64,000 bases of DNA from Psammoneis japonica (GCA_008632985.1 QPGO01000104.1:186001-250000), one strand, 5' to 3'; positions 2,283 to 58,480 are shown, counted from the stretch's first letter. The notes: a model not told the origin generated them from the sequence alone. Translations and numbers: made by a program.

Positions 2283-3849
2283 ACCGTTTCATTGAGTCTT
2301 TAGCTTTTCACGTACAATTGTAACTCTATAGCGTCAGACCTACATACTTTCTTTGTTCTTCTGGATGTCCTTCGAGGACGATAAAACTTAATGTGTCACT
2401 GTGAATGGGAATGAATCAGGGTGAATGGCAAAACTGCAATGCACAACTTGATCGGGACCAAAAGGTGGTAGATTTCTGTTGCATTGATGGCAACTTTGCC
2501 AGGCCGAGGCAATCAGCAACAAAAAGTTTGAGGTTAGGATGATGCAAAGGGCACCCTCAAGGTGTGAAGAGGAGACAAGTGGTCATGTGGGGACGCTGTT
2601 CCAGTGATCCCAGTCCAGCAAGCCTCTTTTGTGGAGAAGCAGAAGGACATGTGTTCACCCCCAAGGGAGACAGAACATCAATGCTGTTCCTCCTTCTAAG
2701 GCTCATTTGCAATCTGTGGCAGAGTTTGATGATGCCAAACCAATCTTTGAAGAGAGCTGATTTGTCAAATGTCAAAGGCAAGAGTGTCTTGGTTTTGGCA
2801 TTTTCAACCAGAGTCTTGACATGCTGTTGGTGTGTTTGAGAGTTGCCAAGCTTTGTGAGATCCCCATCCATTGCAGACTTGCCAGCCTCAAGCCAAGGAT
2901 CTTAAACTTTCTTCATCTCAGCCACTGCTTTGTGCCCAGCTTGTCTGGTTCATTGTGAGCCTTCAAATGGTGCACAGTGCACATTGGTTGACAGAGAACC
3001 GTCCCTGCCAGTGCACTTTTCAGCAGCAATCACAGCATGAATGAGGCTTTTCCTGGCACTTGCTGCCACCAACCTGCCCACTTGCTGCTTCAAAGCTTTG
3101 GCTGTTCAATCCATCATGATGTGTGTGGAAGCTTCAAAACACAGTGGAGGCGGCCATTGTTGTGGTGGTTGTGCTGCTCCCCAGTTGTGCCATGGCAGTG
3201 GCAATCAAGTCCTTGTGCACCACAGGCAGTGGCTCATGGCACATCTTCAACCACTTCCCCTTCATGGAGTGGGTGGATCAAATGGGCTCCTGCCATGGCA
3301 TGTCAATGATGGCAAAGTTTGGTCTGCAACAACTTGATGAAAAGATGGGAATCTTGTGGACCTGCATCAATGAGGTGACCTTGCTCTTGCCACTGTCTTT
3401 AAAGTCCAAGGGCTTGAGCTGCTCCAACCCCACAAGGCACTTGGCAAACATGCCTGCCCTTTGATGTCACCAGCAAAGTTGGCACCTGCAGATGAAATGG
3501 AGCCTTGTTGGCACCAAAGGTGTTTCGCACATTGGAAAACCCAAGTGCAAGACCTGGGGTGGAAAGCGGTGACACAGAGAATGCAACAGCAGCTGTGCCC
3601 ACAGCTGTCTGCACTCCAGTCTGCCCCTGAGGGCACAAAGTGGGCAGACACAACCCATCAAAGCCAGGGGGCTTGGCAATCCTTTGCTCCAATCTGACCA
3701 TTGCACTTTTCTCAACAGCAGCTCTCAAGTGGCTTTGAGACATTGTTCCCCACAATCCCAGATCCTTGTGACACATGCTGGGGATCAATGTTCCTCAACA
3801 ACAGCTCTTGGAAACCAAGCATGTGCACCAACTTAGAAGTTCTGCTGAG

Positions 3850-4960
3850 AGCACAGCCACCACACCAAAACATTGCCACTCTCCCGCTCATTGTTTCCTC
3901 AGCTTTCAACATCTTGCTGGCAATCAGGTCACAGCCTCTGCACCAATGCCGCCCACTCCTGTGCTGCTCACTCCTGCTTTTGCTTGTTGATTGGAAGTGA
4001 GTCCATGCCCCCACACTTGCCAGCCACACGTGCCTCTGTGACCATCTGAGCAGGCTTGGTGAGAGCATTTGCAACCATTGAGAGCATTTGCAACCATGTC
4101 AGCCATGTCATCAACAAAGGTGCCATCAGCGTGAAAGGCCAGAGACCTTCTCCAGTGTGTCGCACCACTTTCTTCAGCCAACTCTCTGTGTTCAATGTCA
4201 ATTTCTTCAAGCAAAGCAATGTGTTTGCTTGTGAAGCCAATTGGCACAACAACCAAGTTCTGGCGCTGCTCACCACAATCTCTGGAAGCACATCATTGGT
4301 TTGCAGACAAAGCCATTCAACAGGACCCACCCAACTTTGGCAGCTCAAATGAATTTTGATGCCGGCCTTGGGCCCAGGAAGCAATTTAGATGTTTTTCCA
4401 ACACAATCCTGTCTCTGTTCTTGACATGGGTCCCCCACATTGATGTAAAATTTTGGCACCCCATGAGCAGAAAACAGCACATGGCAGGCACATTTCTGCC
4501 CCTCTGCCGTGCCCTCTACAATTTCTTCAGGCATGAAGACTCAAGCTCTTTCTGAACAAGGTCTGCCATTGCCTTGGCACAACCTGGCCTGTCACACCAC
4601 AAGGGGACCACCGTGTGAACCAATTTGTTGGGCTCAAACCAATCTGTGTTCTTGGCAAAGATCTCCTGCAAAATTTGCCAAGCAGGAGAATGACAAAAGC
4701 ATTTGTGCCATCCTTTTGAATCTGCTCTGAAGCATCCTCAACAAATGAGTGCCAGCACCACATCACAACACATGCCTTGACATCTGGGGGTCATGTCGTT
4801 GCTTCAAAGAGTGACTCATGAGATTCACCTGTGTGTTGGAGCACTTCAGGATTGAAGGTCCCCCTCTGATTGATTTGCAAGCAGCCCTTGATTTGGGAAC
4901 TTGCCATTGTGACATTGTCCAAGCAATCAGTGGACTGCAATGGTGCCAGTGGTTGCAGCA
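3850..4960 (-). pseudogene. hemH: Ferrochelatase pseudogene (plastid type, with C-terminal CAB/LHC-motif remnant)
   Basis: Frameshifted fragments: PKSRAACKSIRGGPSILKCS, VVPLWCDRPGCAKAMADLV, VLFSAHGVPKFYINVGDPCQ, LSCQSWVGPVEWL, VVVPIGFTSKHIALLEEIDIEHRELAEESG, AEETMSGRVAM. Confidence 0.9.
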
Positions 4961-6299
4961 GTCAAACAAGAATGCCATGGTCTGAAAACATGTTGCACAG
5001 CTCACCTGTCAGAAGGTGGCAATTTTGGCATCTGTGCCTGTTGAGCTCAGCTTCTCACTTCTCTTTTGTCAAGTGTCAACCCCTGTGTGCATTTCTGCAC
5101 GTGCTCTCACACCAATTTTGCCCTTTTCAGATGGCATTTTGCTGTGTCCCCCAGCACCCTTTGGGCCACTTCTGTCATTGGTGTGCCCTTGTTTTGGCAT
5201 GATGTGCAATGATTTTCAGCAAAAATCCATGCCTTGTGGTTTGCGTGCTTGTTGTCTCGGCAATTTGTTGCAGATTCAGTGCATTTTCTGCACAGGATCC
5301 ATCGCAAGTTCCGCGCACTTCACAAATGCCCGCCCATGTTCACATTGTCTTTGATGCAATCATCTTCTGTCCACACCGTCATCCCACCACATTTCTTTTT
5401 CTCCTGTTGGCTTCTCAAGTCCTTCACCTCATGTGGTGCAAGTTCTGCCCCTCTTGCTGTGGTGTTTTCAAGTGCTTGTTTGGACAAACCATTGGCGCCA
5501 CTTGATGGCCATCCATTTGCTGCACAGATTGGCATTTCTGTGCAAGATTTGGCATCAATTCTGCGTGAGAATGATGTTTCTTCCAACGCCCTTCTCATCA
5601 CATCATCAAGGCTCCCTGTTTCACACATGCAAGTCCTGAACACCCCCTCTTTTCCCCACTGGCCTGCCAACCATGCTGCTCTGAGCAGCCAGTGGCTCAA
5701 TTTTGTTCCGGCGCATCAGGTGTGAAACTCAGTCAGTCTTTGTTGAAGACAAGACTCATCCTTGGAAGCAAGTTTTTTTCAGAGTTTGCACTGACTTTGT
5801 GTCCTCATGTTGACATGGCTGTCCTTTGTTGTGTTGGTTTGGGTGCTTTGCATCCTCTCCAAAAGAAAGCAACGACCTCAATTCTGTGCAATTGCATCTC
5901 AACCAGTTGTCTCCATTGGGTGCCTCCATCCAGAAGCACCGTGCAAACTTAAAATTGGGTTTGAGTTTTTCTTTGAAGCAAATGGCAAATGACCTGTCCA
6001 CTGCCTGACCAACAAACCAGCCAACAACTGGCCAACACAAAAAAAGTGTCCTGAAGAATCGCCAGCCACTGAGTGGTTCAATGAAATCTTGCACCCCGCA
6101 CCAGTGGTGGGAGGTCCAAGTGTTTTTTTCAGAGGAGGAAAAAGCCCCTGTGCTTTGGCCATCTTGGTTTTCAAAGAAAGCCAGAGCATCAAGTCCAAAA
6201 AGAAAGAAAAGCAAAAGACCATGCCCAAATGGTGCAAAAACATGGAAAATGAAAATTTCAACTGATGTGCCTTTGCAAATTCTTCCATGAGCAGGTGTG

Positions 6300-8250
6300 A
6301 AATGCACCAGTTCTGCTGGAATCGATTTCCGAGTGGAAGCAACTCAATCAGAGCAGCACCTCAAGATGGAACCCTGTTTTTTTGTCTGCAAGACAAGAGG
6401 ATTTGTTCTGATGCAATCCATTTCAAAAGCCTCAGGACCAAGGACTCCACAAGTGCACAGCATCATCAAAATGTCTGCACCAAGTCATGGTTGGATAGAA
6501 TTTCAGGTCACGAGTCAATCAGGTCCAAGAAACACATCTGCTGTGCAAGGAGAGACCATTGGAGAGTTTTTAGAGACCAAATCGACAAGCCTTGAGTCCA
6601 AAGAGCAAGAAGGAACCATTGAAAACTACCCCAAGAGTCTCTCAACTCATGCCTTCCGAGAAATTACACTTCAGAATCAGAGTTGTTGTTTTTGAGACGA
6701 TCTGAAGAAACCAAAGGCTCTCAGCAGCAAGAAAGTGCCTGTTGGACCCAAGAGGTCAATGAAGAGTGTCTGTGCGACCCTTCAATCGACTCTAAGTTGA
6801 ATCTGGTGGGAAACCAAGCGCTGAGCCATCAGCCATCACTCGCACCGCAAGGATGGCAGCATCAGTCTGCTGTCCAAAATGACGAACTGCTGGAACACAC
6901 CCTTGACAAGCTGATTGAATTTTGAGCAGTCCAGAGGTTGTTGAAGACGTCCATGACAAAAAAATGTCAAATCAGACTCTGACAGCAAGGTTGGCTCCAA
7001 AACCAAAATGGCTCCAAGTTTGGTTCCGAAAATGGTCTCCTTTGTGGCACCTGAGCTGTCCAAAGTGAATGAAAAGTGCCACCTTTGAAAAAAGAACACC
7101 TGCATCATGGATTGAAGCCACTCTAAAAACAAAGTGGCAAAAGAGTGCAAGGGCAGCTCTGAAAGAGACCCAAAAATACAAAGCTCTGATGGCAATCGCA
7201 CACGGTCGTGTGACGACAGCAGAAACACCTCTGTGAAAGAGGAGTTGAATGCCACAAGGACTGAGCAGTTCACAACAACATTTAAAATGAGTTCCTTGGC
7301 ATGGGAACAAAAAAACAAGAGCAAAATTGTGACTCCAAAACACTTGGTGAACAAAACCATCAATTTGGAAAAATTGATCTGATCGATTCCGATCAAAAAA
7401 TTTGTGCCGCTGGAGGAGCACAACTCAATGCAGGACGTCTGGCAACCCAGAAAAAACACCACAGCATGTTGCACCAGTCCTGTCCTCTTTGTCTGTGTGA
7501 GTGCTTCTCTGAGAAAAGCAAAAAACAAGCTTCAACGCCGTTCTTCTCAACAAAGAACATTGTCAACCACAACTTTGCACAAAATCATGCGGAAGTTGAG
7601 AATGAAGAAATCCTCCACCAAAACTTGGGAAACAAAGGGTGGACTCTTCACGACTGACAGTCGCTGTCCAACACAGTTCTCTTTGTCTGAACTTGACAAG
7701 CATGTGATGACATCAATGACAAAGTGTGTTTGCAACACATCATTCTCTTCAAGTTCACATGATGTGATCAATTGACATGACTTGATGCTCAGTCTTGCAA
7801 TCAAACTGGGCTGTGCAAATGAAGAAATCAAATTGGAAGAAGCAGCTGCCCTGCAAAGAATGTTGTGCACTCTTTGATGCTGATGTTTTCCAGCTGAAAA
7901 CTGGTCACATTGAAAAATGTGATGACGTGAGTGGAGTCAATGACGGAACGAATGGTCCTCGACTCACATTGTCACACTGTTCATCACAATGATGTGACAG
8001 CTGCGGCAACTCATCTGACTCCAGAGGAGCAGGATCAATTGAGCTTCCTTTTAAAAAAAGATTTGAGTCTCTTTTTGATGGTTCTCTGGGCAAGTGGACC
8101 GGAAAACCTTGCAGTGAAATCTGGTGCAAAACTGCATCACACAAAAGGTTTCCTGTTTCCACAAGCCTTGGAGGCAACTTGCAAGGAGGTCGAAAGGCTC
8201 TGCAAGCCAAAAATCCTGAAGAAAAACAAACCACTCTGAGCTCTTCCCCA
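6300..8250 (+). mobile_element. Degenerate Ty3/gypsy gag-pol remnant (protease to start of RT)
   Basis: HDVI..HDLM (cf. protease YDxIIGRDL) near 7760-7790. HLTPEEQDQLSFLLKK..LFDGSLGKW..KEVERLCK..ILKK at 8010-8230 matches the pre-RT region of diatom gypsy pol. Left boundary approximate. Confidence 0.65.
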
Positions 8251-8351
8251 GTTTCTGTGCATGACTCAAGCACACCCATTGTCCGAAGGGGGGCACAACT
8301 CCACACCCAGATGCAACACTGAGTCCCAGCGACATCTGCTGACCAGCAGAG

Positions 8352-8748
8352 GACGCGCTCCAGCTCTGGGTGGGACCTTGCACCACTGCACTGTGACATC
8401 AACAGTTTTTTGGATCGCGTCGCATGTCACCCACGCACATTTCTACGTGTTGTGTTCTCCGAAATTGTTTCATGCTCCCTGTTTTGCGAAGCCAAAGGCT
8501 TTCCATTTTCAACATTTGTGAGAATGAAAATGTGCTGGGTGTTTTCTTTGATGTCTGAAGAACACACCCGGGCAAACTGTTGATGATGCACTGCAAGCAT
8601 GGAGGAGGAGATGCTTTCGTAAAATTGCCTCTTTTTCTGTTGGCGATCATTCACATTTTCATTGCAGCAAAAATTCACTGCAGAGCTTGCACGCAGAATT
8701 CTGCAGGCCCAATGTCACACGGAGTCCCGCCTGGGACTGGAACCCATC
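8352..8748 (+). mobile_element. MITE family A, copy 1 (~397 bp)
   Basis: TIRs GACGCGCTCCAGCTCTGGGTGGGA / TCCCGCCTGGGACTGGAACCCATC with 4-bp TSD AGAG. Near-identical to 48769-49162 and 57477-57874. Confidence 0.9.
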
Positions 8749-8829
8749 AGAGCCACAGAAAAAGCAAAATGATGCTGCGCATCTGAGAGGAAATGAAGCA
8801 CAGAAGCTTTGGAAAACAACAACAAACAA

Positions 8830-10685
8830 GTCCCGCATTTCCATGTTTTTGTGTTTTCCCGCATTTCCATGTTTTCGTGTTTTTCTGCATTTCCATGTTT
8901 TTGTGTTTTCCCGCATTTCCGTGTTTTGGTGTTCCGTGTTTTTGTGTTTTTCCATGTTTCCTTGTTTTCATGTTTTTCCGCATTTTCGTGTTTTCGTGTT
9001 TTCCTGCATTTCCATGTTTTCATGTTTTCCTGCATTTTCGTGTTTTTGCATTTTCCCGCATTTCCGTGTTTTCCCGCATTTCCGTGTTTTCCCACATTTT
9101 CGTGTTTTCATGTTTTCCCAAATTTCCGTGTTTTTGTGTTTTCCTGCATTTCCATGTTTTCGTGTTTTCATTGCATTTCCGTGTTTTCGTGTTTTCCTGC
9201 ATTTCGGTGTTTTTGTGTTTTCCCACATTTCTGCATTTTTGTGTTTTGTCGTGTTTCCATGTTTTGGTGTTTTCCCGCATTTCCATGTTTTTGTGTTTTT
9301 CCGCATGTCTGCATTTTCTTGTTTTCCAGTGTTTCCGTGTTTTTCCGCATTTCCATCTTTTCATGTTTTCCCGCATTTCCGTGTTTTCATGTTTTCCAAC
9401 ATTTCCGTGTTTTTGTGTTTTCCTGCATTTCCATGTTTCCGCTTTTCCTGCATTTCCTTGTTTTCGTGTTTTCCCACATCCCGCATTTCCGTGTTTTCAT
9501 GTTTTCCAACATTTCCGTGTTTTTGTGTTTTCCTGCATTTCCATGTTTTTGTGTTTTCCTTGCATTTCCGTGTTTTCGTGTTTTTGGGCACGCTGAATTA
9601 AAGTCACGCATTGGGCACATGCCCTCACTCCACTTTTGCCCCCGAATGGCCAGATCTGTAAAACGGATGTTTCTGTAAAACGCGCACGCAATTGGCGTGC
9701 ACGAACAGTCAAAATGTGCATCCGGCGGCAAGACAAGGGAATCGAACACGGCCCGGCGCAAGACGGACAGGTCTCACGCAGAATCCTGCGCAGACATGAG
9801 GTGATGAGCCAACCCATGTGTTTTGCACGACAAAGCACGTGTTTTACAGATCAACACGGTTTTACACCATTGCCCTCCCTCCCCCACTTTTCTCTGGAGG
9901 GTGCGCCCAATGCGCGACTTCAACTCAGTGCACCCTTTGTGTTTTCCCTCATTTCCGTGTTTTTGTGTTTTCCCGCATTTCCATGTTTTCCCACATTTCC
10001 TTGTTTTTGTGTTTTCCAGGGTTTCTGTGTTTTCATGTTTTCCCGCATTTCCGTGTTTTCGTGTTTTCCCACATTTCCTTGTTTTTGTGTTTTCCAGGGT
10101 TTCTGTGTTTTCATGTTTTCCCGCATTTCCGTGTCTTCGTGTTTTCCCGCATTTTCGTGTTTTCGCACATTTCCATGTTTTCGTGTTTTCCCATGTTTTT
10201 GTGTTTTCCTGTGTTTCCGTGTTTTCATTTTCCCGCATTTCCCTTTTTCATGTTTTCCCACATTCCTGTGTTTTCGTGTTTTCTCATGTTTCCAGGTTTT
10301 TGTGTTTTCTCGCATTTCCAGGTTTTTCTGTTTTCCCTCATTTCCGGGTTTTCATGTTTTCCCGCATTTCCTGGTTTTCGTGTTTTCTCTCTGCCATTCA
10401 TTGCAACGCCAGAGCACAATTTCGCGCCTTTCACAATTTCCTGTGTTTCCGTGTTTTTGTGTTTTCCCACATTTTCGTGTTTTTGTGTTTTCCTGCATTT
10501 CCGTGTTTTCGTGTTTTCCCACATTTCCGTGTTTTGTGTTTTCCCACATTTCTGTTTTTTTGTGTTTTCCCACATTTCCGTTTTTTTGTGTTTTCCTTGC
10601 ATTTCCGTGTTTCAGTGTTTTGGTGTTTTCCCGCATTTCTCCAGGTTTTTGTGTCTTCCCGCATTTCCGGGTTTTCTTGTTTTCC
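8830..10685. repeat. Satellite/minisatellite of 8-9-bp subunits (~26-bp higher-order unit TTTTCCCGCATTTCCGTGTTTTTGTG), interrupted by a MITE
   Basis: Directly visible tandem arrays at 8830-9585 and 9936-10685. Confidence 0.95.
9586..9935. mobile_element. MITE with ~35-bp TIRs (GGG...CCC), PIF/Harbinger-like
   Basis: Left end GGGCACGCTGAATTAAAGTCACGCATTGGGC; right end reverse complement GGGTGCACTGAGTTGAAGTCGCGCATTGGGC. Flanked by TTT/TTT inside the satellite. Confidence 0.8.
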
Positions 10686-12021
10686 TTTGATTTTGTGTGG
10701 TCCAGCAAAGGCTGCAGCCCTGAGCAAAAACAATGTGGCAGAGAAATCAACAAGCTTTCAATGAATGAGTTCCGGCACACAATGATTGACAAGGGCCACC
10801 ACAGCAAAGGATTCACTGCCATTTGCATGGCCCAAACAGCACCCACTCCATCAGCAACTCTTGGTGTTTCCAAAAACAAGCACGACATTGCAGTGGACCT
10901 GTTGCACAAGCTTGTCTCTGCTTCAAGTGACAAGGGATCCTTTCTGTGCCATTTCAGGGATGAAATGAACAAAACCTTTGCATCGCTCAAGCACGCACCC
11001 TGCCTCCTGCAACATGACTTTCTGGCAAGACTTGGTGCAGCACCAAGGAATGTTTGGCACCTGCATTTTGATTGCTGCTTTTTGGTTGGAACAAAGCAAC
11101 AACAATCACAAGAAACAAGAGCACCCCCATCCAGTGGCTGCAGTGCAGCTCAACAACTTGCCCTCATTCAGTCTCGCCACATGAACAATTCTGGTGTTGT
11201 TTCATTTTTCATGTGCCCTTCCTCAATGCATCCATGGTTTGTTCATTTCCTTTTTAATCCACCTGGCATGTTGGTCTGCTGTTGATTCCATTGGCTCTTG
11301 TTTCAACGAGTTGTCACCAAAAACATCAATTTAAACAGCTGCCTGTTGTGGTGCCTGCGGGAGCCACAAATCCATGTTTTTGATGTCTTTCTCATCATTT
11401 TCTCCTGCTTGCAACTGCTTGCTGTTGTTTTCTTGGGTCTTTTCTTGGGTCTCTTCTGTCCCGTCCATGTGGTCCCAGAACTCCCTCGAACAAACTTCGT
11501 TGCACTCATCTGCGTCCTTGCTCAATCTCTGCTTGTGTGAATCTTTTTTCCCAATTCTTTCTGCCACGGGTGCATTTTTTGGCAAAGAGCTTTTGGGCAG
11601 GAAAGACACTGTTAGCCCAGCAATGTACCTCCAGTGAGCTAGCCGAGATGTCCCGCTCTCGTTCTTCTGTTCAACAAAGCCGACACGTCCATTCGTTGAA
11701 AATTTCACAATGCCCTTGCCACATCATGGCCTCAGTCATTAAGAAAGGAAAAGTCTTAGCAGCAAACGACACATTCCAAACAGCTATGACGATGCTTCTG
11801 ATTCCTCGGTCCTAAATTGCCGCCTTTGTTTCGTGTGGCTTCGTACGACGGGGCGCCCTCATCGCATTTAACTAGTGAAGCAGAAAGAGTTGCTTTTCTC
11901 TAAAATTCTTCTCCTATGAATTAAAAAGTTAACTCTTGGAAACTTCCTTTGCTACGGACACAAACAAAAGGAATAATATTTTTGCATATCACTTCACAAA
12001 AGCATTCAACCACCAATGTCT

Positions 12022-13713: not shown

Positions 13714-14444
13714 GGTCGAGAACCCTATCTCTTTCACGAGGTAAGTCGAGAGAAGTGTGGCGTCTGGATTGGATCTTTGTGAATTTTTGGCGGTCACTTA
13801 TCGCGATACTAGAATTGACTGGTGCAATACCAGAAGATTCACGTGGACTCTACAGCAGTTTGGAATTTTGGCAGTCTATTCGAAATATATAGCCCACAGG
13901 ATTTAGGGGACGGGGTTCTGGAAGATCGCCAGCTCTCACTTTCCGTTGGCTACTCCGAGTGCTCGTGACTCACGTGTGTTTGTCGGAGTGTTCAAATTCA
14001 GGAGACATTTTGGATTTATTGTGGTCATAACACATCTCTCGCAGCGCTTTATTGTAGTCTTGGCTTAGTATAGTAATCCCAACTACCGGTACCTACTTTA
14101 GTTTAGTTCTCCGATTGAGCTGTACCTTGTTGGACCGACATAGCTGCTGAGCGTTAACATCCAATTTCGATGCGGAAGAAGCTAGCTTAAATTTCGCTTG
14201 CGATCTATCTCTGGGTCTTCCCCGGTCATCTGATTTGAAGGTCGTGGTCAGCGGTGTCTTTAAAATGTTTCTGTTACCAGAGTCTAGTAGCTATCTTATT
14301 TGGCAGCAACTCACAAGCTACAAAGATTTAGACAACTTTGAATGGTCCTGCACTAAAAAACCTTATATCCCTCTATTCAATCCATTCTAATTCACTCTCG
14401 CAGCGTAGCTGTTTGCAAGAAAACGTATCTTTCTTTTTCATTCC

Positions 14445-24600: not shown

Positions 24601-24666
24601 TAAAATGTTGCAAAAAGGCAGCAGTGGTTGGTGATCAGAGGCGGGAGGCATCGTCAGCGGCAGTGT

Positions 24667-48376: not shown

Positions 48377-48421
48377 TTAATGTCACACAATGCTTGTTTA
48401 ATGGGTCATTGTGTTTTATTT

Positions 48422-48540
48422 GTCCATGGATTAAAATCATTGCCACAATGGCAACGAATTCCTCGTAGATGATTTTTGTTCATCCATGGATTGAAATCAT
48501 TTTTGTGACAGAGTGATGAATTCCTCATAGATGATTTTTG
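48422..48540. repeat. Two ~60-bp direct repeats
   Basis: TCCATGGATT(A/G)AAATCATT...GAATTCCTC(G/A)TAGATGATTTTTG occurs twice. Confidence 0.7.
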
Positions 48541-48768
48541 CCATTTTCTGAAATCGACGGTGTGCACGTGCATTTTTTTGTTTTTGTTTTTTAGTGTGTT
48601 TCTTGTTTTTTGTGAACACTCAAGTGCACAATGAATTGAATTGGCAGTTTCTTGAGCATGCCACAAATTGATGTCAAGGTGCAGCATGCATGCCAGTGCT
48701 TGTCTTTTCTGACAACATGATCATCTTCTTGCAGCAGCCATCAGCGAAAACCAGACGAAAGCCCCCCA

Positions 48769-49162
48769 GACGCATTCCAGCTCTAGGTGGGATGTGCTGC
48801 TGCACTGTGACATCAATGGTTTTTTGGATCGCGTCGCATGTCGCGCACGCACATTTCTGCGTGTTACATTCTACGAAATTGTTTCATGCTCCCTGTTTTG
48901 CGAAGCCAAAGGCTTTCTGTTTTCAACGTTTGTGAGAACAAAAATGCACTGGGTGTGTTCTTTGATGTCTGAAGAACACACCAGGGCAAACTGTCAATGA
49001 TGTGCTGCAAGCACGAAGGAGGAGATACGTTCGTAAAATTGCCTCTTTTTCTGTTGGCGATCATTCACATTTTCATTGCTTTGCAAATTTGCTGCGGAGC
49101 TCGCACGCAGAATTCCACGGGCCCAATGTCACACGGAGTCCCACCCAGGACTGGAACCCGTC
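48769..49162 (+). mobile_element. MITE family A, copy 2
   Basis: Same TIRs and body as copy 1; TSD CCCA. Confidence 0.9.
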
Positions 49163-49643
49163 CCCAGACCTCTCCTGCCATGTGGGCTGTGGTGCGTGCC
49201 AACCCACACAGCTCTGTTGTCCATGCACAGATTTGAGTCATTCAAGACATCAACTCAGGATTGCCTCTGCTGCTGAATCAAACAAAAGGCACTTGCACTT
49301 TCTTCCTTCTCCTCGCACTGCAGCAACAAGCCAGCAGCAGCCATGGTCAGAAGTGCAAGAAGAGAGTGCCGCGCATCACATTGGCTGTTTTTGTTGAGTG
49401 CAGTTCCTGTGCTCCAAACCAAAGAGCTCTGTTGCAGCTCTCACAGCAATGCTGTGTGTTGTCTCACAACCCCAGCACTTTGTTTGCAGCCTGTGAGCGA
49501 TCTGTTCATTTTGACGTTGGCAAGTCTCAACCATTTGATGCAGTGTGAGTGAAAATCAACAGACAAAACCCAAGAAGGCTTTCAGCCAACAACCCAAAAA
49601 ACACAACAACTCCCATGGGGCTCCTTTTGGAAAGCGCGGTTGG

Positions 49644-50300
49644 GCCTGTTCCAGCTCCAGGTGCTCCGCGCGGGTTCGATTCCCATCATTTGGATTTTTG
49701 TGCATTTGGCGCAATTGACTTTTTCCAAATCCGTTTTTTGCCAAATCGAAGGGCAAGCGCACACTTTACATGCATTTTCGGGTGCACACTCACCTTTCGA
49801 TTTTCGAAACGATCAAAATTGAAGGAGTCAATTGCAGACGCGTTCCAGACGTGGGTGGGAATCTGTGTGACATTGGGCCCGTAGACTTCTGCGTGCGAGC
49901 TCCGCAGTGAAATCATGCGGCAATTAAAATGTCAATGATCGCCAACAGAAAATGAGGCAATTTTGCGAACACACAAACTCGCACATGATTGAAGCACATC
50001 ATTTTTTACTTGGCCAGCCACATTCTTCAGACATTGAAGAGTGCAACTGGCGCGTCATTGTTTCTGTGAATTTGTCGTGCAAAACATCTGGGGCTTCGCA
50101 AAACAGCGATTCTGGACAATTTTTTTTAAACATCACACATGGAAATCTACGTGCGAAACATGCGACGGATGACAAAAATTGTTGTTGTCACATGTCAGCA
50201 CTGCGAGCTCCCACCTGGGGCTGGAATGCGTCTGCGCCAAACTGCGTGAAAATCGGCCTCTCACGTGATGAAAAGCAGATCACCTGGAGCTGGAACAGGC
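49644..50300. mobile_element. Outer TIR element hosting a nested family-A-like MITE
   Basis: Perfect 20-bp TIR GCCTGTTCCAGCTCCAGGTG / CACCTGGAGCTGGAACAGGC, with GTTGG duplicated on both flanks. Confidence 0.8.
49837..50232 (-). mobile_element. Diverged MITE family A relative, inverted and nested
   Basis: GACGCGTTCCAG...CTGGAATGCGTC; body is reverse-similar to family A; TSD TGCA/TGCG. Confidence 0.85.
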
Positions 50301-53300
50301 GTTGGTGTGTGAATGGCAGTGCTGATGTGTCGCACAGATTCAGTGGAGAAAGAACATCATGCTTTGATTTTCTGTCAAAATCACAAGAGGAAACTGATCA
50401 AGTGGGAAGTTGGTGGTCAATTTTTGACAGCTTCTGGCAAACAAATGACTGAAAGAACACAGCTTGTTGCCAGACCAAGTGGCGTCCATGTTGCCCAAAA
50501 CATCAACCCAAAAGCAGCAACCCAAGTGGCTTGGATGATTGGCTTGTGTGGACAAGAGCAAAAGAATGACAGTGCTCCACCCCCAAAAAACAGCACAAGT
50601 GTCAAGCACTCTTGTGGTTGGCTCTGCAGGGCCACATGTGTGAAGAAGGTTGTGCTCCGCCATCTGGCCACATGTGCTCGCACATTTCAATTTCCTGTGC
50701 ACATCTCATGGCACAGAATCAATTTTGCTGAGCCACAGTTCTGGGCACTCAGGAGTTTGCCTGAGCTGCTCCTTGAGGGCTCCATTGAAGAGAGGTGACA
50801 ACAAACTGGGGGCAAATTTTGTGGTGGTCCCACCGTGGTGCACCTGCAGCCACACACCACACACCTGTCTGTGAGCTGCCCCTGCTTGTGCCTGTGCAAG
50901 AGTCTTGCATTGGCAAGGGTGTGCCACACCATTTTGACACTCCTGCCAGTCCAGAACAGCACTGAGCAGTTTGGCTGTGGGTGCTGTCTGACCCATCAGC
51001 CACCATGTTTGTGGAAATTCTTCTGCCAGCAATGTGTGCATTTGCGCAAACTTCCAATGCAGTGCTGTGCAGCCCTCCATGAAACTGAGCCAGCCCCCAG
51101 CAGCAGGTCGAATCTCTCAGTCCCATTTTCCAAGCCATTGCACTGCAGCTTTTCCCATTTCTCCATTGGCCCGGGCCTTTGTCATCTTCTGATGCAGCTT
51201 GTCTGCAATGAGGAAGTCCGCTGGCCTGCTGTTGGCATGTCATGGCAGGCTTGGGTGACTCACCCCACTGGCGCAACATCACCTTGTCAACTCTGCATTG
51301 CCCAGATGCATGCTTTGCACCCCGTTGCCTCTGACAAAAAGTGAGCAGGAGTTGGTGGTAAACAAAAATGACTCCTTTCTGCTGTCTGCACAGCAGATGA
51401 GTGTCCACACAGAGACCATTGCAGGAGCCGGCAGACATGAGCCATGACAACAGGTGCACTGTTCTCTTGTTCTTGATGTTGATGAGTTCCAGTCACTTCC
51501 TGTCAAATTGACAGCCTTCATGACCTTGTTGAATCATGAGCTGTTGTCGAGTGTCAAGAATGTTCTGCAGTGACACAAGTTCACAAGTGGTGGCCAGAGT
51601 CAATTCTGGGGCCCACTCAACAGCAAAGCCAGAAGCCACTTGAGAGAGAGCAGCACATGAGTGATGTTCACAGGGTGCCAGGTTGATGGGGAGCAACAGA
51701 AATCAAAGAAGAACAAATTTTGGTGGCCAACCTCAATGGACTCATGAAGAATGAGAAAACAGCGAACAGCCAGAGTGACAAACAGGCAGCACAAAAACCA
51801 ACAAATCACTCCTTGAACACTGCACCTTGTGGCTGGGGAATGGAAAATCCATCAGCCTTGCCAGGTGATGGTCATTCTGGTGCACACCCCAAAGTGGGCT
51901 TGGGTTTGAGTCACACCAACCAAGTGTTTTGGCCACCTGTGAGACTTTCACATGGGTGCGAGCTGTGACATGCACAAGACCAATCACCCACAGCTGGCCA
52001 CACCAAAAACTGTTCCTGACCCTGGAACATGATGCACCCCTTTCTCCTGTGAGGGCACCTGCAATGGTCTCTGCACAGAGACTCATTTGCTGCGCAGACA
52101 GCAGCAAGATGTTGTGCCATGTCTGGGTCAGAGCACTGCTTGCTGTGTCCCACAGATGTCACCAAGCTCAGCTTTGAAGATGGGGCACAAATGACGTCAC
52201 TCTTGCTTTTGCTCAAATCCTGTCCTGTCAGCCTCCTTGAAGGTTTCAGGTCTGCTGTGGCATGCTCTTGTGCACCCTGGCCCACTTGCCTCATGCCAAC
52301 ATTGTCCATTCACACTGTCCACAGGAACATCAGAGTTTTCCTTTGTCCAGTCCAAAGGGGGCACAAAACTTGGCACAAACTTGCTGTTCATGAGGTGTGG
52401 CTGGTGTGTTTTTTGCATCTCTGCTGGCCTCTCCTTTGCAACTGTGTCTGTGTCCATGTTCATCTGCAAGGGACAGTCCAAGGTTTTGCATGCAACAAAA
52501 TCATCTGGGTGTCCTTCAACCTTCATGGCGACCCAAGTGAGAGGTTGCTTTCAGAGTTTGAGGTGCACATTGAGCAGATGACATTGTGTCACTTGCCTGT
52601 TGCAGTGAGGCTGTGCTCAATGTTTTTTTGCTGCACTCCCAAGAGCTTGATGGTCACTGCTCCCATCAGCCACAGTCCTTTGCTCTGTTTTTTGAACCTT
52701 GCGTGCAATGATGGATGTGAGCTCCATCCACTGCACCACAACAGACAGAAGGCCAGTCAACTCTGCACAACATGCACCACCCAAGTTTGAAGCAGGGTCT
52801 CTGGACCTTGCTCGTGCTCTCTGCTTTCTGCATTTGACAGCCTCTGTTCTTCACACAAAAGAGCCAGTGGAAAGTGCTGCAGCCACGCTCTGCTCTCTGG
52901 ATGCCCTGCAGCAGCGCTGGTTGCCATTGTTGTCATTCTTGCACCCCCCTTTGCTGGCCATCTGAAATCTTGGCAAAAACTCCCAGTGTGCTCTTGCAGG
53001 TCTGTTGGGCTGGCCTGGGTCTCTGTTTTGACTCTTGTGGCCAATGGAAATTTTGCCCATTTCCCCTGCATGCTGGTGATGACAGTGACCAGCCCTTGCT
53101 GGGCAACCCAGAGCTGGAGCATCTCCATGTGGTGTGTCCTCATCTGCCCTTTTGTGCACTCTCGCTTTTGTGATGTCCACAGGAAACAATGCCATTGTTT
53201 GTGGTTGTGATCTGTTTGCCACTTCAGTGGTGTGTTGTTGATGTTTTGATTCTGTTGCCCCAAACTGCACTCAACCAGGTGCTTCCTTCTGCCACACCAC

Positions 53301-54100
53301 CGGCCACTCTTTGGCTGATTCCCTTGTGCTGGCCACCAGTCAAGTGTGGCTCTTGGTGCTGGTCATGAGCGGGTGGTTTCCTCTCAGGCTGCAAGGCAAA
53401 ACCTCCCCCCCCAAGCCACACTGGAGAACACATTCACCTGCAAGCACAGACAATGCAGACTGAGCCTTGTGCCAGGGGCTTGCATGTGAGCCCCCACCAC
53501 CCCACCACCCCACCACTCTCTTGAGCCCAGAGGCTTCAGGAACTTGTTGACTCTCCTTTGTTGACAAACAAAGTCAGTTTCTGTGCAGAAGTCATGCTCA
53601 CTTTGGAGCTCATGTGTTCTTTGCAAATGGCAAGAAATTGGCAGCCCTTGCAGCTTTGTTCAAAGAGCTGTGCCCTGGCGAGCCAATCTCCAAGCACACA
53701 CAGTGCAAATGCTTCCACCACCAGACAAACTGGCCCTCACCACAACAGCTCTCCAGTGAGCAATGGTGGTGCTCTCTGTTGAGAGTGCTGGAGGTTTGCT
53801 TCCAGCATGTGAAAAAAATGAGGGGTGTGTCGCCAGTGTGTGGCACGAGTGCTTCGACCATTGTTGCACCTGGGTGCTCCCTCTGTGTGTGCAAGACAGA
53901 TGTCTGCTCTTGTTCAGAGGAACGTCTCTCTTTGATTGTGAGCTGCCAATGCAGCTTGAACAAATTCTCTTTTAGATTTGGCTTTTATGTGCTTTCCTTC
54001 ACTGCAGGCCCTGGACTGGCCAGCCAGTTTTCGGCGGTCGCATCCAAAAGCAAGTGTGGTGGCGTCTGTGACGTCACGGCTGTCGCCCGAAAGTTGCATG
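50300..54100. other. TpA/CpG-depleted degenerate block 5 (unclassified part)
   Basis: Virtually no TA over ~3.6 kb; no credible ORF. Confidence 0.8.
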
Positions 54101-54175
54101 CAGGAGTGAGGAGTGAACCCCCAAAACGCGACCAGATTCACCCAGCGACGAAGCAACACACAATTTGTGAACAGC

Positions 54176-54970
54176 ATGAAATTAGATGGAAAGAACATCA
54201 TCATCACTGGTGCAGCATCCGGCATCGGCAAAGCTTTATTAGAACAGCTAGTCAGGACGGACGCAAATGCCATTTTTGCAGTCGATGTGAACGCCGAATT
54301 GATCAAGAAAACCTGTTCCAGATTGCGCTCACCAAAAGTTGCGCCATATGTTTGCGACGTTTCGGATCAAGTAAACATCGATAAATTATTCCACCATGCA
54401 AAAGAAGAGCTCGGCACCATTGATGTGTTTATTGCAAATGCCGGCTTTGCATATTATGAACGGCTCGACGGAGCGAACTACGAACAAATCGAGAAGATAT
54501 ACCAAGTGAATGTGTTTAGTGCGATATATTCCTTTGAAAAGATGCAACAAATCAACCGAGGCCGTGACCACAAGACTGTAATCACTGCATCAGCAATGGC
54601 GCACATGGGTGTACCGGGGTATGCTCTGTACGCTGGAACGAAATCAGCCTTGCACCGGTTTGCTGAAAGCGTTCGCTGGGAAATGAGCAATCCTGAAGAG
54701 TTGATGTTGGTGTATCCGATATCCACACGAACCAGCTTCTTTGATGCGGCTGGTAACGGGGTGCCGACGGCGTGGCCTACCCAGTCATCGGAAACTGTTG
54801 CCCGTGCAATGCTTCATGGCATCAGGCGGGACAACCAGAGCGTTTATCCTTCCTACCTCTTTCGCGTTACTCGGTTGCTCAAACGATTTTTACCAGTACA
54901 TCGCGTGGTCCTCTACCCGGAGTATCGAAAGTTCCAAAAATGGGATAATGCAGAGTGTTCCATTCATTAG
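54176..54970 (+). CDS. Classical short-chain dehydrogenase/reductase
   Basis: TGAASGIG, NAG, S and YAGTK motifs; intronless. Confidence 0.92.
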   Translation: MKLDGKNIIITGAASGIGKALLEQLVRTDANAIFAVDVNAELIKKTCSRLRSPKVAPYVCDVSDQVNIDKLFHHAKEELGTIDVFIANAGFAYYERLDGANYEQIEKIYQVNVFSAIYSFEKMQQINRGRDHKTVITASAMAHMGVPGYALYAGTKSALHRFAESVRWEMSNPEELMLVYPISTRTSFFDAAGNGVPTAWPTQSSETVARAMLHGIRRDNQSVYPSYLFRVTRLLKRFLPVHRVVLYPEYRKFQKWDNAECSIH

Positions 54971-55660: not shown

Positions 55661-55899
55661 GAGTGTAAAAGCGAGCAACGAAACTGCAAGTCAAAGCGCT
55701 CATGTTTGTTGCATGTGCAGCTGTGCCGCATGATCCCGCTTCCTCTCTTATCACACCAAAGTGAACCTCAACAAGCTGGAAGCGCAATCGCAGATCTTTT
55801 CGCGCGCAACGGACGGACAGAATAGAAATCGAAGGGCCCTGCTGCTCTCTGCTGTAGCTTGAGCAATGAATGTAGCTCTCTGCTAAAGGTCGATTCTAG

Positions 55900-58480
55900 A
55901 GAGAAAAAACAGCTTCGTCTCAAGGACTGATTCTGCACTGCAGCGCAGCTTGAGACAAAGGATGTCTCTCTTATTTTTAACTGTGATGTGCACGCGATGA
56001 GAGTGAGCACTGCGAAGCACCGTTCTCAGTGGCGGCACGTGGTCGACAAAGAGCTGCTGCATCCTTTGTGCCGACTGTCGTGAGACACATGCAAAATGTG
56101 ACATAAAGATTTCCAACTGCAATTGCAACTTTTTTGCTGGTCCTTGTCAAATTGGCTTTCGGTTTGCATGCAGCTCCTTGAAAGCAGAGCTGCATGTGGC
56201 GACTCTTCAGGGCAAGACTTGGGACATTGCTCGACTGTTGTTGTGATCGTTTTGCTCCCATCAGGAAATGCAATTTCTTCATTTTTTCTGTTTTGCTGCA
56301 GGTTCCTTCTTCAATGGTCATGGGGGTTGGCCAGTTGGAGTTTCCACTTGTGGCAAAACAAGTTTCCGTGCGGACAACGTGCAGATGCAATGAAGGACAG
56401 CCGCTCCGATCCATTTGAGCACGGATTTGGAATGAGCTCGACAAGCAGGCTCCAGATCTGATCACTGATGGTGCAGAGCTCCCATCAATTGCACTTTTGG
56501 TTTCACGCACTGTCCCATCATAAAGCACATCACGTGCCACATCACACAGCCAAGCTGCATTGACGCCATGGGGCGAAAATGAGCAAGGTGTTGTGATTGC
56601 CACTGTCGCTTTGAAGGGGAAGCAAAAAATGTTCCAAACAAGGCACCAACCATTGTTTGCAGTGTCCAACAACTGCACTTGCTGCACAAACCAGCTCTTC
56701 TTCTCTTTTTGAAAAAAAAACATCCCATTGTTCCTTTTCTGTGTCATGCACGGCGGTGCATTGTCGACGTTGGAAACCAGAGTGTCATTTTCTGCATCTG
56801 TCATGGGAAACTGGCAGAAACAAAAATGATGCTGTCCACACGTGTGCATTCATTAGATGCCAGAATTCCTCAGATGCTGACAATTGCGTCTGCAGTGGAA
56901 ATCAACCCAGTGATTGCAGACTCATCAATGCAGCGGTGTGAGAGCCCTGCAGAAAAAATGTCAGCAAACACACTGCTTGTTGGCATGTCCAAATGCGGCA
57001 TGACAGTCAACAGTGCCAAGAAATCCAGCACAGCCATCAAAACAAGCACTGTTTTGCAGTGGTGTGACCACACTCTCATCTTGATTGACGTTGCGGCCAT
57101 CGATCTACAAACGATCAAGTCCCATGGTGGGAGACGCGGTGTTTTTTGCTGTTCTGAGCATTGCATTGGATGGGTGCAACTTCAAAATGCCACGTCATGT
57201 GCCACAACAACACACAGCTTTGTGTGCAATGCACTGGGTGACAATGTGTGAACCTCAAGCAACCAGGAGGTGGTGGCCGTCCAACCCACCAAAAGTGACC
57301 CGGATGTTGGGATTCTCAATTTGCCAAAATCAGGTGATTTTGCCAAATCCAACCAGCCATCCACCCTCGTTGTGACTGATTTCTGGCCACTCGCCGGAAG
57401 GGCACATTGACTCATTGTCACTCACATGGGGGGCTGCTCTGGCTGACTCATGGCACTTGGTGCCTGCATTGCCAGGGACGCGTTCCAGCTCCAGGTGGGG
57501 ACCTCGCACTGCTGCACTGTGACATCAAGAGTTTTTTGGATTGTGTGGCATGTCGCGCACACAGATTTCTGCGTGCGACATTCTACAAAATTGTTTCATG
57601 CTCCCCATTTTGCAAAGCCAAAGGCTTTCTATTTTCAACATTTGTGAGAATGAAAATGCTCTGGGCACATTCTTCAATGTCTGAAGAATGTGCCCGGGCA
57701 AACCATTGACAATGCACCGCAAGTGTGGAGGAGGAGATGCGTTCGTAAAATTGCCTCTTTTTCTGTTGACAATCATTTGCATTTTCATTGCTTGACAAAT
57801 TCACTGCGGAGCTCGCATGCAGAATTCTGTGGGCCCAATGTCACACGGAGTCCCACCTGGGACTGGAACCCATCCAGGGCAGAAGCATTCTCTGGGTGAT
57901 CTTCACAATCATCAGGTCTTGGCCCACCTGTGCAGCTGAGAGCAACCAGCATGATGAGAAATGCAGAGTTGGCGAGGATGATGCTCACACCCACACTTGG
58001 CCACCAAGAATCACAAGAACAACCATTTTCTCCCTGGTCATCATGCCTGTGGTCACTTGTCACAGCAGCTGTTGCCACCTGAAAGGCGCCAGCACACATG
58101 CAAAGACAGCCCAAAGCCCCCACCAAAGTGAGCTCACATGCATCTTCATGTGGCACCACCAGAGCCAGTGGACAAGGAGAACACTTGTGACAGCACAGCC
58201 AGATTCACAACCAGAGATTTGCAGCTGCACACGGACACTGCTGCAGCTGACAAGATCCAGGAGGCAGTGGCGCAGGCAAGCCAAGCACTGCCCACCTGTC
58301 GTTTGTCAAAGCAGCATTTGAGCAAAATCATCAGGTGAGACTTGTTTCAGAGCCTGGCACAAAGCTGCATCACAATGGATGATGGCAGAAATCCCAGCTT
58401 TCTTGTGACATCCCACTCACCCAATCCTCGCAGCAACTTCTTTCCCCTTCTTTTGTGGCACACTTTGCCGCCGCCCTTTT
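55900..58480. other. TpA/CpG-depleted degenerate block 6
   Basis: Same composition as the other blocks; contains MITE A copy 3. Confidence 0.8.
57477..57874 (+). mobile_element. MITE family A, copy 3
   Basis: Same TIRs and body as copy 1; TSD CAGG. Confidence 0.9.

Follow-up and report, generated by a model that had tools for sequence, protein, structure and literature searches.

In a 64-kb stretch of DNA from the pennate diatom Psammoneis japonica (hereafter the window), six blocks have lost nearly all of their TA dinucleotides, while the flanking genes keep theirs. These blocks are quite probably islands in which defunct mobile and repeat DNA was struck by a TpA-specific A:T->G:C hypermutation, in addition to the decay of methylated CpG; the islands would comprise a tyrosine-recombinase (YR) retroelement, MITE-like elements, satellites and captured gene fragments. 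In the proposed mechanism, both processes are context-specific transitions that would act at the DNA level and end in TG or CA. A hit on the top-strand A of a TpA would give TG and a hit on the bottom-strand A would give CA, and the second process would be ordinary methylated-CpG decay. The direction of change, its strand symmetry, the element-sharp edges, a 3'-neighbour effect and the sparing of the flanking genes are all apparent from the sequence itself.

The blocks sum to 32,420 bp, in which dinucleotide counts over the window gave 109 TA (observed/expected ratio, o/e, 0.054), with o/e values of 0.42 for CG, 1.66 for TG and 1.79 for CA; the corresponding values in the 31,580 bp outside the blocks are 0.57, 0.95, 1.18 and 1.18. 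The pattern of TA loss with TG/CA enrichment, which formed the core of an initial annotation of this DNA, was thus recovered in full. Neighbouring DNA keeps TA as had been claimed, both in ORFs (o/e 0.53) and in 9,556 bp of non-ORF DNA (0.64), and the TA cluster cited as an example is present at 29339, 29343 and 29347. TA o/e is 0.00-0.08 in 26 of the 64 1-kb windows and at least 0.16 in all the others, and ~90% of the TA expected from the flanking rate is gone from the blocks, where every other dinucleotide containing A or T stands at an o/e of 0.82 or more. Both losses appear to end in TG/CA, since the summed deficit of TA (-1031) and CG (-1074), 2105, is balanced by the surplus of TG (+1015) and CA (+1164), 2179. 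The two strands are alike (3535 TG and 3430 CA in the blocks), which agrees with the strand-symmetric TA->TG/CA mutator put forward earlier, as do the polarised and between-copy comparisons described below. The loss depends on the 3' neighbour, TAT being the most mutable and TAA the least. No correlation is seen between adjacent TG/CA outcomes (3481 of 6935 are the same, 0.502 versus 0.500 expected), and therefore a processive single-strand deaminase gains no support.

CpG->TG/CA decay runs alongside the TA loss in the same blocks and is less complete. Its signature, the one expected of methylation decay, consists of the CG deficit and of 53 CG>TG/CA reversals inferred for the block proteins versus none for a host gene. 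Among 1-kb windows CpG loss is uneven (CG o/e 0.06-1.1) and TA loss even (0.00-0.08); in 9001-11000, for instance, CG o/e is 0.76-1.10, yet TA is gone (0.00-0.08). TA loss is thus a process separate from CpG decay and independent of the degree of CpG loss. The initial annotation had drawn the same distinction, and had pointed out that repeat-induced point mutation (RIP) would make TA and not erase it, which also stands.

Block A (~2535-11613) has 27 TA in 9,079 bp (o/e 0.04; CG 0.39, TG 1.59, CA 1.77). It contains a ferrochelatase pseudogene, relics of unknown kind and a single MITE-like copy. A 26-bp satellite (TRF period 26) adds two plus-strand arrays, 8831-9584 with 29 copies and 9936-10685 with 26.4, which are TA-free at the o/e given for 9001-11000, with CpG mostly retained. 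Block B (19683-29246; 22 TA in 19683-29103, o/e 0.05) consists of a 3.2 kb unknown relic (19683-22860) and the YR retroelement; to its right TAs restart at 29250 and 29257, so that the edge falls within 10 bp of the retroelement terminus. Block C (32291-34613) has 10 TA (o/e 0.07; CG 0.15, TG 1.83, CA 1.90). Block D (38490-41128) has a TA o/e of 0.06 in 38490-40020 and 0.05 in 40452-41128, and is split at 40020-40452 by what seems to be a young insertion. Block E (47825-54183; 23 TA, o/e 0.06; one TA-free run of 2,614 bp) is less depleted in its left 2 kb and is preceded by a partly depleted shoulder (46794-47825), whose ORF at 46794-47522 has o/e values of 0.23 (TA), 0.88 (CG), 1.49 (TG) and 1.52 (CA); a weak GT20 fragment in this block (E 6.4e-4) falls under the Pfam cutoff. 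Block F (56104 to ~58519) has a TA o/e of 0.04-0.06 in 56001-58000, and TAs restart from 58519. The earlier statement that all six blocks are repeats could be borne out in part, as the repeats found within the window are a four-copy 400-bp family, the 26-bp satellites and one retroelement. The confinement of TA loss to mobile or repeat blocks, which had also been claimed, holds within this 64-kb window, and the block edges are sharp.

The organisation of the minus-strand element at 22862-29246 is that of a YR retrotransposon, now dead, whose direct repeats are split as in the Ngaro/PAT-like type, following the scheme as described (PMC4157794). Its parts are, in order, an A repeat (29246-29101), ORF1 (~28989-26700), a reverse transcriptase (RT, 26940-25684), the YR (24596-23444), a B repeat (23333-23189), a second A repeat (23191-23046) and a second B repeat (23006-22862); the A repeats are 92% identical and the B repeats 90%. 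The RT has 1,909 homologues at E<=1e-3. The window's own RT copy gave no match in a Pfam search, and among its relatives 5 of 8 proteins, and then 1 of 6, had an RVT_1 match, always under the gathering cutoff. Pfam, NCBIfam and PDB-sequence searches for the tyrosine recombinase were likewise without a match. A predicted structural model of the relatives' ORF3 (pLDDT 79.8), on the other hand, matches Cre (E 1.5e-7, probability 1.00), at low TM scores of 0.38/0.44, and has 41 PDB matches at E<=1e-3, including XerA, XerH, the phage and Tn1549 integrases and Flp. The window copy aligns to these relatives at 43-53% identity, and this element accordingly has a tyrosine recombinase downstream of the RT.

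The proteins encoded in the blocks reveal the direction of the change. The fragment of a ferrochelatase pseudogene on the minus strand of block A (3930-4940) was recognized by Pfam PF00762 on two ORFs and spans at least three frames, since tblastn of 15 ferrochelatases gave HSPs in -1, -2 and -3. It is host-derived, and is in the same TA-poor state as the transposons and satellites. One of its 9 conserved Tyr columns is kept, while 6 read Cys, 1 His and 1 Gln. None is kept in the RT (0/7; 4 Cys, 2 His), in ORF1 (0/2) or in the tyrosine recombinase (0/6; 1 Cys, 1 His, 3 Phe, 1 Ala), where His has taken the place of Tyr in the C-terminal RYL motif. Taken over these four proteins, 1 of 24 conserved Tyr is kept (12 Cys, 5 His, 3 Phe, 1 Lys, 1 Gln, 1 Ala), so that 17 columns show Tyr->Cys/His, whereas a host DPPIV gene used as control keeps 26 of 29. 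The initial annotation had reported such replacements in four proteins, and they are present in the ferrochelatase, the RT and the tyrosine recombinase; the fourth, a piggyBac transposase (DDE_Tnp_1_7-type), was not found, there being no Pfam match to it in 271 block ORFs of at least 70 aa nor in stop-read-through frames of 50001-54200 and 4900-8400; heavy decay could mask one. As had been claimed, block ORFs are Tyr-free and rich in Cys and His; P0122 has Y 0.2%, C 5.3% and H 5.0%, compared with Y 2.1%, C 1.3% and H 3.9% in its 150 relatives.

When single steps back to the family consensus were counted for the RT, ferrochelatase and YR, 30 TA>TG/CA, 53 CG>TG/CA and 16 other transitions were obtained, compared with 3, 0 and 12.3 in the host control; in the three block proteins the 30 TA>TG/CA reversals stand against 9 other AT>GC transitions. 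The CpG decay shows in these proteins as Arg->Cys/His/Trp/Gln/stop. Such polarised tests use relatives at ~40-55% identity in place of same-family consensus sequences. Ordinary decay is also heavy: each protein has 20-22 transversions, together with 15-18 differences that take more than one step. In 80 loci of related metagenomic elements TA o/e is 0.37-0.85, none being TA-poor; 0 of their 1303 1-kb windows fall below 0.25, and a shortage of Tyr is seen in 0 of 26 close protein relatives. Together with the comparison between copies, the polarised comparison with relatives supports TA as the ancestral state and TG or CA as the outcome of the change.

The comparison between copies was made in a MITE-like family of ~400 bp with terminal inverted repeats, of which blastn found four copies. 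The plus-strand copy in block A (8352-8748) is 70-87% identical to the other three, which lie in block E at 48769-49162 (plus strand) and, inverted relative to it, at 49837-50234 (minus strand), and in block F at 57476-57874. In their alignment 7 dinucleotide columns have TA in at least one copy and TG/CA in others, 17 columns mix TG and CA, and no column has TA in all four copies, a distribution which indicates that the copies mutated independently of one another. Block D harbours a further MITE-like element (39969-40523), which is unmutated; its arms, inverted and located at 39969-39990 and 40502-40523, are similar to the ones in the 400-bp family, and 33 TA are listed between 40020 and 40452. 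It is best read as a young insertion that escaped TA loss, and its normal TA content inside block D implies that the process is not simply domain-wide and continuous. This element and the partly depleted shoulder, taken as 46794-49000, would fit episodic action and equally a difference in age.

Several other explanations have to be weighed against hypermutation. At WA motifs Pol eta introduces A->G errors, with TA as a hotspot, and a polymerase of this type might have acted in methylated or repaired heterochromatin; Pol-eta-like repair coupled to methylated DNA was a candidate in the initial annotation. However, a WA mutator is disfavoured because AA is undepleted (o/e 1.30 in the blocks versus 1.17 outside) and AT is mildly reduced (0.82 versus 0.92), and a WA-biased polymerase is not expected to leave a near-total loss of one dinucleotide; we regard this origin as highly improbable. 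Selection or an element-intrinsic avoidance of TA is scarcely credible. TA-free DNA lacks TAA and TAG stops, and elements could in this way evade a TA-directed host factor, but the copies are dead (Tyr->His in a catalytic motif, Arg->stop, frameshifts), none of the 80 related elements is TA-poor, and the ferrochelatase fragment and satellites are in the same state. If RNA or cDNA had been hyperedited before integration, by ADAR-like A->I editing or by deamination of minus-strand cDNA in the way that APOBEC3 attacks retroviruses, elements would arrive already mutated, which would explain the exact retroelement edge, and the 5'-T preference resembles the ADAR 5'-U preference quoted in a preprint on Bigelowiella natans (Mettrop et al., bioRxiv 10.64898/2026.01.13.699255). 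Nevertheless, DNA that is not of retroelement origin (the MITE-like copies, the 26-bp satellites and the relic at 19683-22860) is equally TA-free, TG equals CA on both strands, the MITE-like copies disagree at TA/TG/CA sites, and the mutations reported in B. natans arise in resident single-copy DNA, so that such editing is very unlikely.

An assembly or basecalling artefact is also unlikely, if a little less so. True TA bearing a dense modification such as 6mA or 5hmU might be misread on each strand and give a random TG or CA in the consensus; a long-read miscall of this kind would produce the TG/CA scatter, the uncorrelated neighbours, the sharp edges and the Tyr->Cys/His replacements, and 5hmU with a preference for TA and TC has been reported on dinoflagellate repeats (PMC11572971). 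But ~90% of the TAs in the blocks would have to be miscalled in a contig whose host genes read as intact ORFs, the longest of 998 aa, the TA-rich MITE in block D reads normally, and real decay of an independent kind is present in the blocks (frameshifts, transversions, and CpG->TG/CA with Arg->Cys/His/Trp/stop). Furthermore, an identical signature was obtained by Illumina as de novo mutations in B. natans.

In that chlorarachniophyte, TpA->TpG/CpA hypermutation of integrated viral DNA has been shown experimentally, 230 of the 231 mutations in two viral inserts of mutation accumulation lines being A->G/T->C, all at TpA; the genome has 124 TpA-poor clusters, and RT and DDE domains are over-represented in its TpA-poor CDS (bioRxiv 10.64898/2026.01.13.699255). 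As far as the preprint describes it, the two systems have in common that TpA alone is struck, giving TpG or CpA by strand, that foreign or mobile DNA is the only target (the remainder of the B. natans genome keeping the normal GC->AT bias), and that TpA-poor, CpA+TpG-rich clusters have an excess of RT and DDE domains; the process in B. natans is not constitutive. They differ in host (Stramenopila here, Rhizaria there), in evidence (a state inferred from sequence versus mutations measured de novo), in degree (near saturation at o/e 0.05 versus a Rho of 0.45 for the B. natans NCLDV insert) and in targets (transposons, satellites and a gene fragment versus giant-virus and virophage inserts). In addition, the diatom shows CpG decay and a 3'-neighbour effect, whereas the words 'CpG', 'flanking' and 'trinucleotide' do not occur in the preprint's main text. 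Full-text literature searches found no report of TpA hypermutation in diatoms, as the initial annotation had supposed; the phenomenon as such is not new, however, given its description in B. natans in 2026. We read the kind as already known from B. natans, and the diatom as a second major lineage in which it has run to saturation.

Other known systems resemble it in part. Fungal RIP also ruins repeated and mobile DNA in a dinucleotide context and spares genes, but its C->T changes (CpA->TpA in Neurospora) enrich AT and create TA, the opposite direction. RIP was rejected for these blocks, where TA is destroyed and GC content is 50.2% versus 48.1% outside. Many diatoms encode a RID-related DNMT4 of unknown function (PMC9998398). 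Deamination of 5mC, as in methylated diatom transposons, probably affects the same blocks, where CG o/e is 0.06-0.7, and yields the same TG/CA products, but it cannot remove TA, and it is patchy where TA loss is uniform. ADAR and APOBEC3 share deaminase-driven clustered transitions, a 5'-neighbour rule and an action against selfish nucleic acids; they work on dsRNA or single-stranded cDNA before integration and are strand-asymmetric, whereas in the diatom DNA elements and satellites are struck equally on both strands. Dinoflagellate 5hmU is directed to T, is reported to prefer TA and TC and to mark transposons, and could provide T->C chemistry at TpA, but it is described as a silencing mark and not as a mutator (PMC11572971).

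We infer that the hypermutation is an enzymatic process of the same kind as in B. natans, aimed at silenced or foreign DNA. If it is real, its chemistry has in our estimate slightly under an even chance of being the conversion of adenine to hypoxanthine at 5'-TA-3', carried out by an enzyme with a deaminase fold that the transposon-silencing machinery recruits. The main alternative, oxidation of the T in TpA to 5hmU/5fU, which mispairs with G, is rather unlikely. Nothing seen in the window favours the deamination over this oxidation. The same signature in an unrelated alga means that this may be a widespread genome defence. We suggest, tentatively and with more doubt than conviction, that a defence by TpA-directed DNA editing could be of ancient origin and common throughout the SAR supergroup, or even beyond it, and that in diatoms it would be saturated, outpace 5mC decay and target single elements almost to the base pair. 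Such precision would point to guidance by homology or small RNA and not to spreading chromatin, and the enzyme would either deaminate adenine in DNA or belong to a route that oxidises thymine, in neither case one so far known to act on nuclear chromosomes.

When the window is scanned in 1-kb steps, the observed/expected ratio (o/e) of the dinucleotide TpA is 0.00-0.08 in 26 of the 64 windows and at least 0.16 in all the others, and the o/e of TpG and CpA in the 26 TA-poor windows is 1.2-2.55, mostly 1.5-2.1. Joined together, the TA-poor windows make up six blocks, i.e. A (2535-11613), B (19683-29246), C (32291-34613), D (38490-41128, broken at 40020-40452), E (47825-54183) and F (56104 to ~58519), with a longest TA-free run of 2,614 bp. 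The blocks comprise 32,420 bp with 109 TAs (o/e 0.054) and o/e values of 0.42 for CG, 1.66 for TG and 1.79 for CA, versus 0.57 for TA, 0.95 for CG, 1.18 for TG and 1.18 for CA in the remaining 31,580 bp; the loss of TA from TG/CA-rich blocks with normal flanks, as described in the initial annotation, is therefore borne out. The blocks also differ from the non-coding DNA outside them, since the TA o/e outside the blocks is 0.64 in DNA without a long ORF (9,556 bp) and 0.53 in ORFs; both being TA-normal, the contrast is not one of coding versus non-coding DNA. Within the window the effect is as local as had been claimed, with TA counts per 200 bp jumping from 0-2 to 6-15 across every block edge, and the right end of the terminal repeat of the retroelement in block B (~29248) is followed by TAs at 29250 and 29257. 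At the o/e of the surroundings the blocks would gain 1,031 TA and 1,074 CG and lose 1,015 TG and 1,164 CA, so that a loss of 2,105 TA+CG stands against a gain of 2,179 TG+CA. The other A/T-containing dinucleotides are not depleted in the blocks (o/e of 1.30 for AA, 1.28 for TT and 0.82 for AT); GC-biased gene conversion or a plain AT->GC pressure is ruled out, as TA is the sole A/T dinucleotide lost.

Eight host genes outside the blocks were named by Pfam, and the host genes there, which are long and intron-free, mark the organism as a raphid pennate diatom. One of them encodes a DPPIV-type peptidase that shares 56-61% identity with its best database matches, the named ones being from Pseudo-nitzschia, Nitzschia, Cylindrotheca and Fistulifera, and the database search returned no near-identical protein. 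A 2OG-Fe(II) oxygenase gene (1101-2282, plus strand; PF13640/PF13661) adjoins block A, and was dropped as a candidate base modifier as it has no Tet_JBP match in Pfam. Two paralogous long ORFs at 12022-13797 and 14445-15839 (minus strand), which share 72% DNA identity over ~890 bp and have no Pfam family, are TA-normal; the TpA process thus spares a tandem gene duplicate. Three successive ORFs of 271, 278 and 213 aa at 35826-38210 (minus strand), also TA-normal and without a Pfam family, are possibly one gene with introns. A 455-codon frame with one internal stop at 46794-48161 (plus strand) has a TA o/e of 0.23 and no Pfam match, and could represent a more recent target that is still part-way through the process.

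In the 32 kb of the blocks, Pfam recognized almost nothing beyond two ferrochelatase pieces and a sub-threshold fragment of glycosyltransferase family 20 (GT20). The former belong to a ferrochelatase pseudogene at ~3930-4940 (minus strand), traced through three frames by tblastn with 15 ferrochelatases; the latter, at 48409-48720 (minus strand) in block E, is a weak match to the GT20 C-terminus (E 6.4e-4, below the cutoff) and is possibly a second piece captured from a host gene. A MITE-like family of ~400 bp with terminal inverted repeats has four copies over three blocks (8352-8748, 48769-49162, 49837-50234 on the minus strand, and 57476-57874), and a 26-bp satellite forms two arrays in the window. 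The left part of block B holds a 174-bp tandem duplication at 20815-21161 (89% match). Block D is interrupted by a 555-bp element (39969-40523) whose inverted arms resemble the 400-bp family and for which 33 TAs are listed at 40020-40452; being TA-normal in an old block, it appears to be a young insertion that was left untouched, possibly a family member that was mobile until recently. Its ends show a possible 4-bp target duplication, read by eye only.

Block B contains a dead retroelement on the minus strand (22862-29246). Its reverse transcriptase (RT) ORF (25684-26940, minus strand, 418 aa) has 1,909 homologues, whose RVT_1 matches all fall below the Pfam cutoff. From at least 455 confirmed related metagenome loci we fetched the 80 best; in the two whose layout was examined (L004, 1-6220, and L010, 1-6198) ORF1 is followed by the RT and then by a third ORF. 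The identity of the third ORF comes solely from fold comparison, as neither Pfam, NCBIfam nor PDB sequences gave a match, even with the intact relatives. A model built from 28 sequences (pLDDT 79.8) matched Cre recombinase with an E-value of 1.5e-7 and a probability of 1.00, and there were 41 PDB matches at E<=1e-3, including Xer, phage and Tn1549 integrases and Flp; the low TM scores (0.38/0.44) are what one would expect when a protein has two domains. By its predicted fold, the third ORF is thus a tyrosine recombinase (YR), which in the window copy lies at 24596-23444 (minus strand). Split direct repeats mark the ends of the element, with A at 29101-29246 and 23046-23191 and B at 23189-23333 and 22862-23006, the same A1-B1-A2-B2 arrangement as has been described for PAT and Ngaro elements (PMC4157794). 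The family is common in aquatic metagenomes, where many of its contigs are ~6 kb long and spanned entirely by the element. As both the RT and the YR fall below Pfam thresholds, standard annotation would miss this family.

The direction of the change was read from columns in which 60% or more of the aligned relatives share a Tyr. The window codon kept Tyr in 0 of 7 such columns of the RT (4 Cys, 2 His and 1 Lys instead), in 1 of 9 of the ferrochelatase (6 Cys, 1 His, 1 Gln) and in 0 of 6 of the YR (3 Phe, 1 His, 1 Cys, 1 Ala); in ORF1 it was kept in 0 of 2 (1 Cys, 1 His), which makes 1 of 24 for the block proteins, and in the host DPPIV, which served as the control, in 26 of 29 (3 Phe). In the window copy of the recombinase, the motif RPGEYT appears as *PGECT, and the C-terminal GRW..LRYL as GCW..LWHL. 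The replacement of conserved Tyr by Cys or His put forward in the initial annotation is accordingly seen in the ferrochelatase, RT and YR; the piggyBac transposase named as a fourth case was not found by Pfam, either in block ORFs of at least 70 aa or in the read-through frames of 4900-8400 and 50001-54200. Single base changes that would restore the consensus residue in the RT, ferrochelatase and YR fell into 30 TA>TG/CA, 53 CG>TG/CA, 16 other transitions, 57 transversions and 50 multi-step cases, the corresponding values for the host gene being 3, 0, 12.3, 28.7 and 7. The MITE-like copies allow a comparison free of any outgroup: of 74 columns with a pyrimidine-purine step in all four copies, 7 have TA in at least one copy and TG or CA in the rest, 17 are TG/CA mixtures, 16 have CG alongside TG or CA, and CG and TA are found in all four copies in 2 and 0 columns, respectively. 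These patterns imply that TA is ancestral and was lost independently in each copy, with either strand targetable. The Tyr columns, the reversals and the MITE-like copies thus agree with the proposed direction from TA to TG/CA, and the mixed outcomes at the same sites, without strand bias, with its strand symmetry.

CpG decay is visible in the blocks as well, in the form of Arg->His/Cys/Trp/Gln/stop changes, but the CG o/e is patchy (0.06-1.10 per kb) where that of TA stays at 0.00-0.08. CpG is retained and TA absent in the 26-bp satellites, and the left 2 kb of block E with its shoulder (46794-49000) is intermediate (TA 0.16-0.23, CG 0.75-0.88). TpA loss is accordingly faster and more uniform than CpG loss, and independent of it. 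Relative to outside DNA, TA survival is 0.164 for TAA, 0.091 for TAG, 0.067 for TAC and 0.029 for TAT, the ratios being the same when measured against the 80 related loci; TTAA accounts for 21% of surviving TAs versus 5.6% outside, and ATAT for none. The ratios can be fitted by hand with an additive model whose rate depends on the base lying 3' of the target A (T > C > G > A); some of the pattern could also stem from TAs newly formed in A/T runs. The outcome at a site, TG or CA, shows no correlation with that of its neighbour (3,481 of 6,935 the same, 0.502 vs 0.500 expected), and this test gave no sign of the strand-coordinated bursts that mark processive single-strand deaminases.

No TA-poor relative was seen among the 80 best metagenome loci (TA o/e 0.37-0.85; 0 of 1,303 1-kb windows below 0.25) or among the protein relatives, 26 of them close and 150 more remote, whose Tyr content is normal, in a sample that leans to intact or unmutated copies, one search pattern having required GFY and the ranking being by E-value. 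As far as these relatives can show, being ~50% identical rather than a same-family consensus, TA-poverty is not a property of the elements themselves.

The sequence shows an A:T->G:C substitution limited to TpA that acts on DNA, hits either strand and each copy separately, and stays within mobile and repeat DNA; we infer that the process is enzymatic and targeted. Because TpA reads the same on both strands, a single activity directed at its A or its T explains both TpG and CpA. We favour deamination of adenine, which would become hypoxanthine at TpA. Alternatively the T of TpA might be oxidised to 5hmU/5fU and mispair with G, a chemistry that the window sequence cannot separate from adenine deamination and that has a parallel in dinoflagellates, where 5hmU reportedly favours TA and TC and occurs on repeats (PMC11572971). 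The Pol-eta-like repair offered as a candidate in the initial annotation is unlikely, because a WA mutator of this type would not leave AA intact (o/e 1.30 in the blocks).

Editing before integration is also unlikely, as DNA elements and satellites are hit too and the two strands equally, and selection for TA loss is unlikely for copies that are dead. A slow, domain-wide chromatin effect is argued against by the nearly base-pair edge of the retroelement and by the untouched young MITE in block D, which fit an episodic or sequence-guided action instead. Most of the signs, the Tyr->Cys/His readings included, would also arise if dense modification of TpA were misread in a long-read consensus; however, the host genes of the same contig are clean, the blocks carry much independent decay, and short-read measurements in another alga gave the same signature, for which reasons we consider such an artefact improbable.

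That alga is Bigelowiella natans, in which one integrated giant-virus region and one virophage region account for 231 of the 302 nuclear mutations seen over 15 mutation-accumulation lines; 230 of these 231 were A->G or T->C, all on TpA, at rates ~1000-fold over background and in some lines only (bioRxiv 10.64898/2026.01.13.699255). In the main text of this preprint, the genome is described as having 124 TpA-poor, CpA+TpG-rich clusters, and RT and DDE domains are enriched among its TpA-poor genes; adenine deamination is proposed, an ADAT2 homologue is named without a functional test, and diatoms, CpG and flanking context are not mentioned. TpA-specific hypermutation of invading DNA is thus a kind first described in 2026, with the B. 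natans preprint as its sole described case. The diatom blocks are of the same kind in a different supergroup branch, but consist of transposons, satellites and a captured gene fragment rather than giant-virus and virophage inserts, and their TpA loss is near saturation. In line with the initial annotation, full-text literature searches found no report of TpA depletion or A:T->G:C repeat hypermutation in diatoms, although the kind itself is known from B. natans. The sole diatom mutation-accumulation study found a GC->AT bias with high-coverage repeats filtered out, and the word 'transposable' is absent from its accessible text (PMC6604790).

The same signature in a pennate diatom suggests that the process is more than the peculiarity of a single lineage. 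We know of no genetic system for B. natans; CRISPR knock-outs, methylomes and chromatin maps exist for diatoms, and the present case moves the question to this group. TpA o/e combined with TG/CA excess makes a simple genome-wide marker for old mobile DNA that homology searches miss. The finding is also a warning about models of repeat decay built on CpG only and about 'orphan ORFs' that are Tyr-poor and Cys/His-rich, since these can result from such a mutator.
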